A stretch of 32,000 nt of DNA from Candidatus Methylomirabilis limnetica (GCF_003044035.1 NZ_NVQC01000017.1:60001-92000), one strand, 5' to 3'. Shown: positions 3,945-7,379, counted from the first letter of the stretch. The notes: a model not told the origin generated them from the sequence alone. Translations and numbers: made by a program.

Positions 3945-4550
3945 CTACGACGTGCCGAACAGATCGGTTTCAACCAGTTGACAGAGGGCGTGCCCAAGCG
4001 TCGCGTGGACTTCCTGTATCCTGGGTGTTGATCGAGAGGGGACCACGAATGCATAATCTGCCAGCCCGGCGAGCTTTCCCCCATCCCCGCCGGCGAACGC
4101 AACTGTACAGAGCTGCATCTTGCCTGCCGTTTCTATCCCGCACACGACACTGGAGGACTGGCCGCTGGTACTGATCCCAATGGCAACATCGCCGGCAGAG
4201 CCCAAGGCTTCAACCTGGCGCGCAAAGACCTGAGCGTAGTCCCGATCATTACTGATGCTGGTCAGAACGGTGCCATCGGTCGTCAGAGCGATGGCAGGTA
4301 GCGCCGGCCGATCGAGCAGGAAACGGTTCACGAGCTCACCTGCAATATGCTGGGCGTCGGCCGCACTTCCGCCGTTTCCGAAGATCAAGATCTTCCTTCC
4401 GGCCCGCAGGGCCTTCGCAATGGCTACCGCCACACGGACCACCAGGTCCAGGTGGCCTTCCAGGAAGGCTAGCTTGAGCTCAGCGCTCTCACGGAATATC
4501 GCCTCGGCAATGCCCCGATGCGAATGAGAGGTTCCGGGTTCAAGGTTCAA
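3945..4550 (-). CDS. gmhA: Phosphoheptose isomerase (SIS domain; D-sedoheptulose-7-phosphate isomerase)
   Basis: ILIFGNGGSAADAQHIAGEL, ALTTDGTVLTSISND and GISTSGQSSSV match the GmhA family. The only canonical start is TTG 4550..4548, which lies inside the heptamer array and has no obvious Shine-Dalgarno, so the start is uncertain. Confidence 0.85.
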   Translation of the reverse strand: MNLEPGTSHSHRGIAEAIFRESAELKLAFLEGHLDLVVRVAVAIAKALRAGRKILIFGNGGSAADAQHIAGELVNRFLLDRPALPAIALTTDGTVLTSISNDRDYAQVFARQVEALGSAGDVAIGISTSGQSSSVVCGIETAGKMQLCTVAFAGGDGGKLAGLADYAFVVPSRSTPRIQEVHATLGHALCQLVETDLFGTS

Positions 4551-4572
4551 GGTTCAAGGTTCCGGGTTCAAG
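4529..4572. repeat. Direct tandem array of six 7-nt units: AGGTTCC GGGTTCA AGGTTCA AGGTTCA AGGTTCC GGGTTCA
   Basis: Read directly. It spans the gmhA start codon and the first ~7 codons (MNLEPGTS is encoded by the repeat). Confidence 0.9.
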
Positions 4573-4767
4573 ACTAAAAAGCCGTTCCATGTCCCAGGTG
4601 GCATCTCACACCTCACAGGTCCACAGCGTGGAACGCGAAACCTGGCGTTTGGAACTGACAACTGTGTCGCACCAATCCCAGCCTTATTTGAGGTACTACC
4701 TTATGGCGAGTTGAGTTGTCAAGGGAAAAGACGAAGCGTACCCACATCGGGGGTCTGCGGCTTCCGT

Positions 4768-5706
4768 TTATCCCTTGACCTTGGCCTTGACGGGAGCTTT
4801 CAGCTTGGATCGCTCCCACGTACGCCACTCATAGACAATGGGGGAGGCTACAAACCAGGAAGAGTAGGTGCCAACGCAGACACCGGCGATCAGTGCAAGT
4901 GAAAAATCGTGGAGCACCTCCCCACCTAGCATGAAGAGGGCTAGCAAGACCAGGAGGACTGTGAGCGACGTCACAATAGTTCGGCTCAAGACCTCATTGA
5001 TACTCATGTTGATGACGTCTCCCAGCGATTCTTTCCGTCGGCCTTGAAGATTCTCACGGATCCGGTCGAAGACCACTACGGTATCTGTCAGCGAATATCC
5101 GGCGAGGGTGAGCAACGCAGTGATGATGAGGAGGGTGATCTCCCCGTTCAACACATAAAAAAACCCTAGAACAGCCAGGACATCATGCAGGGTGGCGATG
5201 GCCGCCGCTATCCCGAACTTGAACTCGAAGCGCCAGGCAATATAGGCGATGATGCCGATCATGGAAAAGGCAATAGCCCACAGAGCAGCTTTTTGGAGGT
5301 CCTTTCCTATGGCTGGCCCGACCTCATTCGTCCCCTCCACCACGAACGGATTATCAGGTAACCCTTTCGAGAAGATGTCCTGCACCCGCTGGGCCATTCC
5401 GGCCTGACTACCCTCTGCCCGCTTCAAGCGAACCATGATGCGGTCCCCACCGGCGAACTGCTGGGGCTCACTATCCTTCAGGCCACTCTCTGCCAGCAGC
5501 GTTCTGACCCGACCAAGATCTACCGGCTTGCTGAACTTGAGCTGAACAGAGGTGCCGCCGGCGAAGTCAATTCCGAGATTAGCCGCGCCGCGCCCGATCT
5601 GAATGATCGAGACAATTCCGAGAAGGCACAGAACTGCCGAAACCGTGAACGCAGTCCTCCGCCAGGCAACGAAATCGACCTTTGTCTTACCGAGAATCTC
5701 CATCAT
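4768..5706 (-). CDS. secF: Protein translocase subunit SecF
   Basis: GIDFAGGTSVQ, multiple C-terminal TM segments and FDRIRE are typical of SecF. The ORF track starts at GTG 5724, but that codon and the next five lie inside the hairpin repeat. ATG 5706 (MMEILGK...) is more plausible. Confidence 0.9.
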   Translation of the reverse strand: MMEILGKTKVDFVAWRRTAFTVSAVLCLLGIVSIIQIGRGAANLGIDFAGGTSVQLKFSKPVDLGRVRTLLAESGLKDSEPQQFAGGDRIMVRLKRAEGSQAGMAQRVQDIFSKGLPDNPFVVEGTNEVGPAIGKDLQKAALWAIAFSMIGIIAYIAWRFEFKFGIAAAIATLHDVLAVLGFFYVLNGEITLLIITALLTLAGYSLTDTVVVFDRIRENLQGRRKESLGDVINMSINEVLSRTIVTSLTVLLVLLALFMLGGEVLHDFSLALIAGVCVGTYSSWFVASPIVYEWRTWERSKLKAPVKAKVKG

Positions 5707-5710
5707 GGCT

Positions 5711-5780
5711 AGTTCATAGTTCACAGTTCATAGTTCAGGGAGTTTCTAACCACGAACCCTTGAACTATGAACTGTGAACT
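5711..5780. repeat. 7-nt-periodic hairpin: AGTTCAT AGTTCAC AGTTCAT AGTTCAG GG, 16-nt loop, CCCTTGAACTATGAACTGTGAACT; ~22-bp stem with one bulge
   Basis: Read directly. The reverse complement of 5757..5780 equals 5718..5740 apart from one extra A. It fills the gap between the secD stop (5784) and the secF ATG (5706). Confidence 0.9.
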
Positions 5781-5783
5781 TCC

Positions 5784-7379
5784 TTAGATGCTAAGGGTTT
5801 TCAGGTTCCACCGCTGGGTCATCCAGTCGTAGACTACCCTGGTCCCCGTCAATGCCGTCACCAGGTTGAAAATTACCCCGAGGCTCAGGGTGACCGCGAA
5901 GCCTTTCACCGGCCCCGTCCCGAACAAAAACAACGCAAACGCGGTAATCAACGTCGTCACATGGGAGTCGATAATGGTGAGGAAGGCTTTGTCGTAGCCC
6001 CCGTCAATGGCCGACCGGACCCCCTTCCCCAATCGGAGTTCTTCACGGATCCGCTCCAGGATCAGCACGTTCGAGTCCACCGCCATCCCGATTCCAAGGA
6101 TGATGCCCGCAATGCCGGGGAGCGTCAGCGTGGCCCTGAGGCTGGCCAAGGCCCCCACCAGCCAGATGAGATTTAAGAGCAGCGCAAAGTTGGCGATGAC
6201 CCCGGACAACCTGTAGTAGACCGCCATGAAGACAATGACGAGGGCGCCGCCTAAAATCGCGGCCCGCATACCCTTTTCGATGGAGTCCTGGCCCAACGAT
6301 GGACCAACCGTCAGATTCGAAATGATGTTGACGGGCGCGGGAAGCGCGCCGGCACGCAGCACGATCGCCAGATCTCTGGCCTCCTCCATGGTGAAGCTAC
6401 CGGAGATCTGGGCCTTGCCGCCGGGGATCTTCTCCCTGATGACCGGCGCCGAATAGATGGTGTCATCCAGAACGATGGCCATGCGTCGGCCGACGTTGGC
6501 CGCCGTGGCCTCGCCAAAGAGGCGGGTACCCTCCCGATCAAATGCGATCGAGACCACCGGCTGATTGGTCTGGCCCTCGATCTGTACCTGAGCCGAGGTG
6601 AGCAGATCACCCGTCAGGACGGCTCGCTTCTGCACGACAAGGGGGGTTTTACTCACATTTTCCCCCTCCTCCGTACGGCGTATATAGAGAAGCTCGCCGC
6701 CCTCCGGGACCTTTCCCGCCACAGCCTCAGCAATATTGGCATCCTCCGCCACCATCTTAAACTCCAGAAGGGCGGTCTTGCCGATCAGATTGATCGCCCG
6801 CTGCGGCTCCTTGATGCCTGGAAGCTGGACTATGATCCGTCGGTCCCCTTCCTGTATGATGTGAGGCTCGGCCACGCCAAACTGATCGACGCGATTCCGG
6901 ATGGTTTCCAGGCTCTGTTGAATAGTGGATTCCTGGATCCGCTTTATTTCACTCGATGTAAGGCTCAGGCTGAGTTCAGCCGGATCAGCCCCGCCGGACT
7001 GTTGCAGGTTACTATAGCTCTTCAGGATACGGCGCAAGCCATCCATACCTTCCTTCGCCTGAAGCCTGATTCTGATACGGTCGATCCCCTCGCGGGTCAT
7101 CTGCTCGACTGCGATCTTTTCCTTCTCGATTTCCCGGCGCAATTCGGTAATCAGCCGGTCAACGGTGTTTTCTACTGCCTTCTCGGTGACAACCTCAAGG
7201 ACCAGGTGCATCCCCCCCTGTAGATCGAGCCCAAGATTGAGCCGTTCAGCCCGCGGAAGCAACGGAGGCAATAGCGAAGGGAGTGACGACCGGCCTGATA
7301 GCGTGGGAAAGAGATAGTAGCCGGCTATCACCGTCACCAGCAGAAGGGAGAAGATCTTCCATCTTACGGTTTTTTTCAT
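5784..7379 (-). CDS. secD: Protein translocase subunit SecD
   Basis: 531 aa with an N-terminal TM, a large periplasmic domain (LGLDLQGGMHLVLEV) and C-terminal 5-TM SecD/SecF-type region (ILERIREE). It sits immediately upstream of secF. Confidence 0.93.
   Translation of the reverse strand: MKKTVRWKIFSLLLVTVIAGYYLFPTLSGRSSLPSLLPPLLPRAERLNLGLDLQGGMHLVLEVVTEKAVENTVDRLITELRREIEKEKIAVEQMTREGIDRIRIRLQAKEGMDGLRRILKSYSNLQQSGGADPAELSLSLTSSEIKRIQESTIQQSLETIRNRVDQFGVAEPHIIQEGDRRIIVQLPGIKEPQRAINLIGKTALLEFKMVAEDANIAEAVAGKVPEGGELLYIRRTEEGENVSKTPLVVQKRAVLTGDLLTSAQVQIEGQTNQPVVSIAFDREGTRLFGEATAANVGRRMAIVLDDTIYSAPVIREKIPGGKAQISGSFTMEEARDLAIVLRAGALPAPVNIISNLTVGPSLGQDSIEKGMRAAILGGALVIVFMAVYYRLSGVIANFALLLNLIWLVGALASLRATLTLPGIAGIILGIGMAVDSNVLILERIREELRLGKGVRSAIDGGYDKAFLTIIDSHVTTLITAFALFLFGTGPVKGFAVTLSLGVIFNLVTALTGTRVVYDWMTQRWNLKTLSI

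Follow-up and report, generated by a model that had tools for sequence, protein, structure and literature searches.

Stable palindromes are well known within bacterial polycistronic transcripts, as exemplified by the REP sequences of Escherichia coli and the Correia elements of Neisseria, which can alter mRNA stability or processing, Correia elements being cut by RNase III. Tandem heptamer repeats have been noted since about 1990 as the STRR sequences of heterocystous cyanobacteria, and to our knowledge no function or origin has become accepted over decades for these arrays or for those of Xanthomonas, Geobacter and Beggiatoaceae. Convergent heptamers with the unit GGGAATC in Xanthomonas and GGGGAYT in Nostoc were described by Rehm et al. 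(2015, PMC4692102), with 70–75 cases per Xanthomonas genome in which facing arrays can form a stem-loop, and with fast turnover between species (PMC4692102). The TAACTGA repeat, which Beggiatoaceae share with cyanobacteria, forms arrays immediately 5′ of start codons in Beggiatoaceae, frequently leaving no identifiable Shine-Dalgarno (SD) sequence in between (PMC4679880), and Geobacter metallireducens carries heptanucleotide elements of four or five copies, some of them paired (PMC2700814). Replication slippage has been proposed for heptamer arrays by Mrázek and co-workers (summarised in PMC4679880). A different type of hairpin is found in phage T4 genes 38 and 25, where a structure between the SD sequence and the AUG brings the two closer together, from 22 to 5 nt in gene 38 and from 27 to 11 nt in gene 25. 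The latter hairpin originated within a clade and occupies the junction between cistrons 26 and 25 (PMC3014915, which cites Nivinskas 1999 and Malys & Nivinskas 2009).

The locus described here, the spacer between secD and secF of Candidatus Methylomirabilis limnetica, shares features with both systems. It lies within a 32,000-nt stretch of DNA that was analysed as a whole (the window, to whose first letter all plain positions refer), on the minus strand, which is the mRNA sense:

5784..7379, minus strand: secD coding sequence, 531 aa, assigned from Pfam matches (SecDF_P1_head, SecD_1st, SecD_SecF_C) and the ORF list
5786-5784, minus strand: secD stop codon TAA, read from the sequence
5783-5781, minus strand: GGA between the secD stop and the 5′ arm, read from the sequence
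5781..5785, minus strand: SD-like box AAGGA, running from within the secD stop codon up to the foot of the 5′ arm, from the duplex with the 16S 3′ end
5757..5780, minus strand: 5′ arm, AGTTCAC AGTTCAT AGTTCAA GGG, 24 nt, from sequence and fold
5741..5756, minus strand: 16-nt loop TTCGTGGTTAGAAACT, degenerate heptamers, partly self-paired, from the fold
5718..5740, minus strand: 3′ arm, CCC TGAACTA TGAACTG TGAACT, 23 nt, from sequence and fold
5707..5717, minus strand: unpaired 11-nt tail ATGAACT AGCC, leading from the stem to the secF ATG and lacking an SD, read from the sequence
5717-5711, minus strand: fourth heptamer ATGAACT, an extra unpaired unit, read from the sequence
5710-5707, minus strand: AGCC between the last unit and the secF ATG, read from the sequence
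4768..5706, minus strand: secF coding sequence, 312 aa, with its ATG at 5706-5704, assigned from Pfam matches (SecD_SecF_C, Sec_GG), start by alignment

The stem consists of 20 Watson-Crick pairs, a bulged A and then three G-C pairs, so that all 23 pairs are Watson-Crick, and the two arms are exact inverted copies of each other, including the order of the unit variants. A preliminary description of this DNA had placed the repeat correctly, beginning 3 nt past the secD stop and ending 4 nt before the secF ATG, although it is the repeat that ends there, the stem itself ending 11 nt before the ATG; the near-perfect hairpin that it reported is present, with the pairing given above in place of its count of 22 bp. 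Its statement that the units hold no G tracts is correct except for the GGG/CCC clamp that tops the stem, and the stability that it attributed to the stem lies far beyond chance, since the predicted RNA fold of 111 nt has an energy of −44.4 kcal/mol compared to −23.1 ± 3.5 kcal/mol for dinucleotide shuffles (z = −6.2), with none of 200 shuffles reaching the same value. The hairpin region also folds strongly as DNA (−23.1 kcal/mol, z = −8.6).

The start of secF was fixed by alignment, because all relatives open with M(M/I)EILGK and the sequence 5′ of this codon is unrelated among them. The same description had held that ORF callers are misled into starting secF inside the repeat; the public SecF protein record, however, has 312 aa and begins at the ATG, and only a naive longest-ORF rule picks the GTG within the repeat. 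The hairpin is presumably co-transcribed with secD and secF. Ahead of secF, window positions 5704-5731 read ATG AAC TGT GAA CTA TGA, with an overlapping ATG AAC TAG and then CC ATG, a chain of mini reading frames that is probably incidental to the ATGAACT unit sequence. At the other end of the gene, the secF stop codon is spanned by a 20-nt inverted repeat, GTCAAGGGAAAAGACGAAGC / GCTTCCGTTTATCCCTTGAC (window 4718-4779), without a U-tract.

With three and four units facing each other across a 16-nt loop, the spacer hairpin falls within the class of paired heptamer repeats (arrays of three or more tandem 7-nt units opposite their reverse complement, no more than ~150 nt away), and it is one of many such hairpins in Candidatus Methylomirabilis genomes, where they are abundant. 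The 2.55-Mb genome contains 218 arrays of period 7, compared to 5–42 for periods 4–12, and a looser cut-off yielded 405 arrays and 97 inverted pairs, with 70 pairs having at most 150 nt between their arms. Three successive GTTCANN units occur 55 times in the genome, against no match for a reversed control, and are present in 19 of 19 genomes of the genus, in 12 of 12 of a second genus and in the one genome of a third. These counts bear out the earlier suggestion that the spacer shares its architecture, tandem heptamers plus their inverted copy, with the GGGTR loci, and place it in a class that extends through the genome and the lineage. The main unit families of the genome are AGGCTGA, GTTTCGR, GTTCANN and GGGTNNN; (AGGGTTC)n and (GTTCAGG)n differ from each other in phase only. 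The element is thus ordinary for this genome, a known repeat class in a new phylum with a new twist.

Several other members of the class were observed in this genome, which is labelled G000 below (other G labels denote genomes and L labels metagenome contigs). In about 30 elements, AGGCTGA arrays face TCAGCCT arrays across a constant distance of ~84 nt, often flanked by ACTACTCAGGT / ACCTGAGTAGT; this family is MITE-like in its constant arm spacing and may qualify as a MITE. Inverted AGGCTGA / AGCCTTC arrays ~9 kb apart (G000 C36:50708-50736 and C36:59899-59925) flank the 16S rRNA 3′-end region, which may be due to chance, the unit being common.

G000 C2:26075-26198, C8:7471-7590, C11:337714-337837 and C22:12999-13125: examples of the AGGCTGA/TCAGCCT element

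Like Xanthomonas and Nostoc repeats, the secD-secF element is made of tandem 7-nt units in arrays that face each other, there mostly of about four copies and mostly between co-directional genes (PMC4692102), but its unit has no G tract, hence no quadruplex, and its hairpin separates an SD box from a start codon. As in Beggiatoaceae and Geobacter, a heptamer array lies directly upstream of a start codon with no SD in between; the arrays of Beggiatoaceae, cyanobacteria, Geobacter and the STRR sequences are, however, mostly direct repeats of one fixed unit, whereas inverted pairs and many unit types are found here. With REP/BIME elements and hairpin MITEs it shares a stable palindrome within a polycistronic transcript, but differs from them in lacking a shared consensus, a second copy of the loop and any link to a Y1 transposase that we could find, and in having arms made of tandem heptamers.

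A number of known element types were considered and rejected. An intrinsic terminator does not fit, since the stem is followed by AUGAACUAGCCAUG with no U-tract and a terminator scan was negative at the junction; a promoter scan of the spacer likewise found none. A search against Rfam 15 returned only plant miRNA-precursor models, at 20–25 bits against cut-offs of 90–100. The preliminary description had allowed that relatives might reveal a known REP-type repeat; hairpins do occur at the same place in relatives, but a REP/RAYT element was rejected because a shared consensus is lacking and the matches at other places in the genome are confined to the arms, the loop being unique, and a MITE copy because the core and loop occur once in the genome and no border duplication is seen relative to the empty allele of contig L068. 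Five Y1 transposase frames (PF01797) are present, four of them within 8 kb and one with an internal stop (G000 C37:90973-98685 and C1:75694-76026), and no heptamer arrays were found near them.

Long stems of inverted heptamer arrays inside transcription units are also a feature of cassettes carrying PF05635 genes (S23p / Avd-like, the protein type of 23S rRNA intervening sequences). Each of the six genes of this four-helix-bundle family in the genome, including one that lies between atpA and atpG, has inverted heptamer arrays on either side, which raises the question of whether the secD-secF hairpin originated as the empty shell of such a cassette. The hairpin differs from these cassettes in carrying neither a gene nor a remnant of one: blastn and tblastn of the junction spacers found no trace of a PF05635 gene, none of the ~120 sampled junction alleles is long enough to hold the gene, and none of the six cassettes uses GTTCA units. 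An origin of this kind, which would concern only how the hairpin arose, is therefore very improbable.

We compared the secD-secF junction in 44 genomes of the order and 71 metagenome contigs, with the genus taken as SecF identity of at least 81%. A heptamer hairpin is present in 29 of the 31 genus-level junctions, with spacers of 69–210 nt, so that a stem at this position, which had been called unexpected for a normally tightly coupled gene pair, is the rule in the genus. The junction alleles fall into the following classes:

GGGTNNN hairpin: 13 of 31
GTTCANN hairpin, the class of this genome: 11 of 31
NNNTCAG hairpin: 4 of 31
GATYNNG hairpin: 1 of 31
unrelated 133-nt insert (L073): 1 of 31
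empty spacer (L068): 1 of 31

The empty allele (contig Ga0315281_10056730, locus ~880-900) has an 18-nt spacer, TGA GAGGAACGACGATTTAAG ATG, and belongs to one of the closest relatives found, with 94% SecF identity and nucleotide flanks that are ~93–97% identical. Two other relatives of 94% SecF identity carry different sequences at the same place, a GGGT hairpin in L072 and an unrelated multi-hairpin insert of 133 nt in L073. In more distant relatives, within the order and beyond it, the spacer measures 0–31 nt and the secD stop carries GAGG or AAGG, whereas one more distant genus mixes heptamer hairpins (GGAARCT, GGCAATY) with G+C-rich hairpins at the junction. One genus with 34–203 GTTCA arrays per genome nevertheless has a short, heptamer-free junction, which indicates that junction occupancy does not merely reflect repeat load. 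Additionally, an A+T-rich contig of 58% SecF identity (L131, Ga0209342_10020290) has a GTGAGAC heptamer hairpin in its spacer, followed by a normal GGAGGT box.

When 3.9-kb loci of 13 species were compared, arrays recurred only at the secD-secF junction and at the gmhA start, apart from one species with one extra short array; both are thus persistent heptamer sites, and the secD-secF element differs from the Xanthomonas and Nostoc repeats in occupying one orthologous junction throughout a genus. The gmhA start is a second such site that is expanded in this genome: a (GAACCTT)n array is present here (window 4529-4572), and two units only (TGGAACC or TGGAATC twice) were seen in 6 of 12 relatives. 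Several MAG contigs end at or near the secD-secF junction (G013:C47, G015:C55, G004:C82, G017:C71, and L075, L082 and L084), as expected if the repeat hairpin breaks assemblies.

The unit classes are discordant with the SecDF tree, and homology between the classes was not detected, the longest shared words being at most 9 nt, approximately as expected by chance, so that in-situ drift of the units is indistinguishable from replacement. Recombination hitch-hiking was rejected, because no grouping by allele class was seen among the coding flanks of 150 nt and the ratio of near to far divergence is 1.01 in both groups; nor was a long tract of identity found around the spacer in the profile of G000 against L069. 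An exact-pattern search for strain variants in metagenomes returned no matches. Replication slippage and template switching at quasi-palindromes are established processes, and the arms would have been generated by slippage within arrays together with template switching between the quasi-palindromic arms. The exact inverted arms, a C-to-G change that is repeated in two units of one arm in G006, and the different unit numbers of the orthologous alleles G031 and L072 all fit such an origin.

One explanation would be that the hairpin is tolerated junk without any effect, a neutral or selfish product of slippage and template switching at a permissive site, with secF translation starting independently of an SD or loosely coupled. 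The absence of the hairpin from so close a relative as L068, the GGGT hairpin of L072 and the unrelated insert of L073 at the same place, and the discordance of the unit classes with the tree are all in line with this explanation, as are the presence of the same repeats at ~70 other places in the genome, some of them inside genes, and the decay of the ortholog in G006, which has two mismatches and two wobbles and folds at −29 compared to −38 kcal/mol.

The pattern of conservation differs between classes. Among pairs of GTTCA alleles, spacer identity exceeds secF third-position identity in 15 of 15 comparisons (means of 0.80 and 0.60), and in 6 of 6 comparisons between the long GTTCA alleles, although allele classes were defined by unit type, which makes within-class similarity partly circular, and the compared sequences are related, which makes the pair counts non-independent. 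The spacers of G000 and L069 differ at 8 of 77 nt, with only 2 differences in the 50 nt of loop, 3′ arm and tail, when 0.47 of their secF four-fold sites differ (P about 1e-8); those of G000 and G006 have ~15 differences in 74 nt, with 0.28 of the four-fold sites differing; and L069 and L085 reach a spacer identity of 0.99 with a third-position identity of 0.68. The loop is identical in L069, has one change in L085 and 2 of 16 positions changed in G006, and the 11-nt tail is identical in L069 and L085. By contrast, three close pairs of GGGT alleles have spacer identities of 0.61–0.72 with third positions at 0.87–0.92. Since non-orthologous GTTCA hairpins of the genome reach only 0.47–0.65 identity to the junction spacer, and alleles of different classes a mean of 0.50, the GGGT alleles are at noise level and change faster than synonymous sites. 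The GTTCA-class spacer is thus conserved above third codon positions and the GGGT alleles are hypervariable, a class-specific conservation at one junction that sets the locus further apart from Xanthomonas and Nostoc.

Within the stem, 90.6% of cells are paired across six GTTCA alleles, with three pairs changed on both sides, and the only perfect stem among the six is that of this genome. That GGGT alleles outpace synonymous sites is again what tolerated junk would predict, but the conservation of GTTCA spacers, including the unique loop and tail, far above third and four-fold sites is left unexplained by it, and so is a perfect stem here after a divergence expected to affect about a quarter of the pairs. 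We consider this explanation unlikely, without dismissing it.

A second explanation, with which the conserved stem agrees, is an RNA processing or stability element. T7 intercistronic RNase III sites, Neisseria Correia elements and the stems of 23S rRNA intervening sequences behave as RNase III substrates, and cleavage of the secD-secF stem could split the messages or free the secF start and thereby set the ratio of the two products. At 20 bp plus 3 bp the stem reaches the approximately two helical turns needed (~20 bp or more); the rnc gene is present in the genome (C5:2665-3051), hairpins of the same build enclose the 23S-IVS-type four-helix-bundle gene, and the lack of a U-tract speaks against a terminator. 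Processing would, however, leave the conservation of loop and tail and the position of the SD-like box unaccounted for, the empty allele shows that it is not needed in a close relative, and cleavage would give secF a short 5′-monophosphate leader without an SD. We regard an RNase III processing or stability element as improbable.

We also examined the geometry of the ribosome-binding site. The 3′ end of the 16S rRNA is the usual GGATCACCT(CC), and SD motifs are found upstream of 33% of genes compared to a background of 14%, even with crude start positions. The 11 nt between the stem and the secF ATG hold no SD (+0.4 kcal/mol), in agreement with the earlier remark that secF has no free SD; secF need not lack an SD altogether, however, given the SD-like AAGGA at 5785-5781, right against the 5′ base of the stem, whose duplex with the 16S 3′ end is worth −5.1 to −5.7 kcal/mol. 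Along the linear sequence, AAGGA lies 74 nt from the AUG, and folding out the 63-nt hairpin leaves 11 nt. An SD and an AUG that are too far apart, with a stable hairpin restoring a distance of 5–11 nt, is the arrangement of the T4-type split site, and as in T4 gene 25 the hairpin is intercistronic, with a folded distance of 11 nt (PMC3014915). The T4 hairpins are short and non-repetitive, in contrast to the secD-secF stem of 23 pairs, which is made of heptamers and belongs to a genome-wide class; moreover, function was demonstrated for T4 genes 38 and 25, whereas at secD-secF it is proposed from sequence.

The same geometry recurs in other alleles. An SD-like box of −4.2 kcal/mol or better lies within the stop codon and the next 12 nt in 29 of 30 hairpin alleles, and in 21 of the 30, that of this genome among them, the last 20 nt ahead of the start contain no SD that reaches −4 kcal/mol. 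Reading from the sequences, the 14 GTTCA and TCAG alleles all have the box immediately next to the foot of the 5′ arm, with the AUG 4–11 nt from the 3′ base, and at 11 nt in G000, G006, L069, L085, G001 and G012. The empty L068 has its sole SD box at the stop, 13 nt from the ATG. Among the GGGT alleles, approximately one in two has a GAGGT or GGAG box of its own 3′ of the hairpin, ahead of the start.

Based on these observations we tentatively propose, as the most economical reading although one that falls short of being probable, that secF has a split ribosome-binding site with the hairpin looped out between AAGGA and the AUG. Ancestrally, the secF SD box would have been located at the secD stop codon, 6–14 nt before the secF start, as suggested by the 0–31-nt spacers of relatives with GAGG or AAGG at the stop and by the single box of L068. 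A heptamer hairpin would then have been placed, or have grown, between the stop-codon box and the start, and the folded 63-nt stem-loop would loop out so that box and AUG are again 11 nt apart. With no other SD for secF, folding of the hairpin would have become necessary and come under purifying selection, which would have kept the GTTCA-class allele almost unchanged and its stem paired, and alleles with an SD 3′ of the hairpin would have stayed free to vary. We infer from sequence comparison that ribosomes may use the upstream box across the folded hairpin, and that selection for this use, and not another cause, may underlie the conservation.

Some of the evidence counts against a split site. 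Approximately 30% of random 15-mers of the genome match the anti-SD as strongly, and the strength of the upstream box is the same whether a downstream SD is absent (−6.55 kcal/mol) or present (−6.53 kcal/mol). The ensemble predicted for the free mRNA has AAGGA base-paired to the secD end for the most part (unpaired probability 0.11), and in L074 and L081 a CCUUCU tail offers the box a pairing partner. When accessibility was modelled, both for a ribosome placed on the stop codon of secD and for none, the fourth 3′ unit permitted a slipped register. Once the width of a helix is added, the 11 nt reach the upper part of the range of SD-AUG distances that work. About half of the other hairpins in the genome that sit tight against a start have an SD-like box, which we estimate is not significant.

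Strand preference also weighs against the split site. Across the genome, it is more often the antisense than the sense strand of a heptamer hairpin that gives the better fold (42 versus 18, p = 1e-4), so that the class as a whole gives no sign of selection for mRNA structure. The excess is driven by hairpins that pair GGGTTTC units in the 5′ arm to GAAACTC units in the 3′ arm, which have one G-U pair per unit and therefore fold well on one strand only, this strand being antisense to the containing reading frame in every case inspected.

G000 C2:52120-52187, C7:29163-29263, C11:248684-248771 and C13:11233-11311: examples of GGGTTTC/GAAACTC hairpins

This asymmetry, which points away from the mRNA, would be compatible with a site acting at the level of DNA, where the arrays would be recognised by a protein specific for their sequence, or would adopt a cruciform or a single-strand hairpin structure that serves replication, recombination or transcription pausing. 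The marked stability of the DNA hairpin agrees with such a role, as does the occurrence of the cores TCAG/CTGA, GTTCA and GGGT across phyla, for example in the Geobacter MTYCTGA (PMC2700814) and Beggiatoaceae TAACTGA (PMC4679880) repeats. On the other hand, no candidate binding protein is known, the units are wholly different between alleles of the same junction, and changes in the GTTCA class lean towards G-U in the mRNA sense, with 12 G-U compared to 6 A-C cells among the junction alleles, although this difference is not significant. We therefore regard a DNA-level site as highly improbable.

If secF does have a split ribosome-binding site, its history might be one of constructive neutral evolution, in which heptamer hairpins can enter translationally coupled gene junctions since a self-folding insert is geometrically invisible to the ribosome, the insert, once between an SD box and its start codon, makes its own folding indispensable, and former junk is locked in by purifying selection; hairpin stability could then also tune the SecD:SecF ratio. 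We consider this scenario somewhat doubtful; if true, the secD-secF junction would be a natural allelic series of empty, free-to-vary (with their own SD) and locked-in states. Our literature search, whose coverage was incomplete, retrieved no paper on unit-swapping alleles at one junction, nor on a repeat hairpin within a split ribosome-binding site.

The noteworthy parts of this locus are therefore the allelic series at the junction and its class-specific conservation. It represents a rare orthologous repeat site with several states, namely empty, hypervariable with a separate SD in about half of the alleles, and conserved with no other SD, and this contrast makes the function of the repeat directly testable. 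Should the split site fail, the locus would stand as a well-documented hot spot of fast repeat turnover; if it holds, it would account for the ability of palindromic repeats to establish themselves at junctions of tightly coupled operon genes while leaving these functional, and would extend a phage T4 mechanism to cellular operons.
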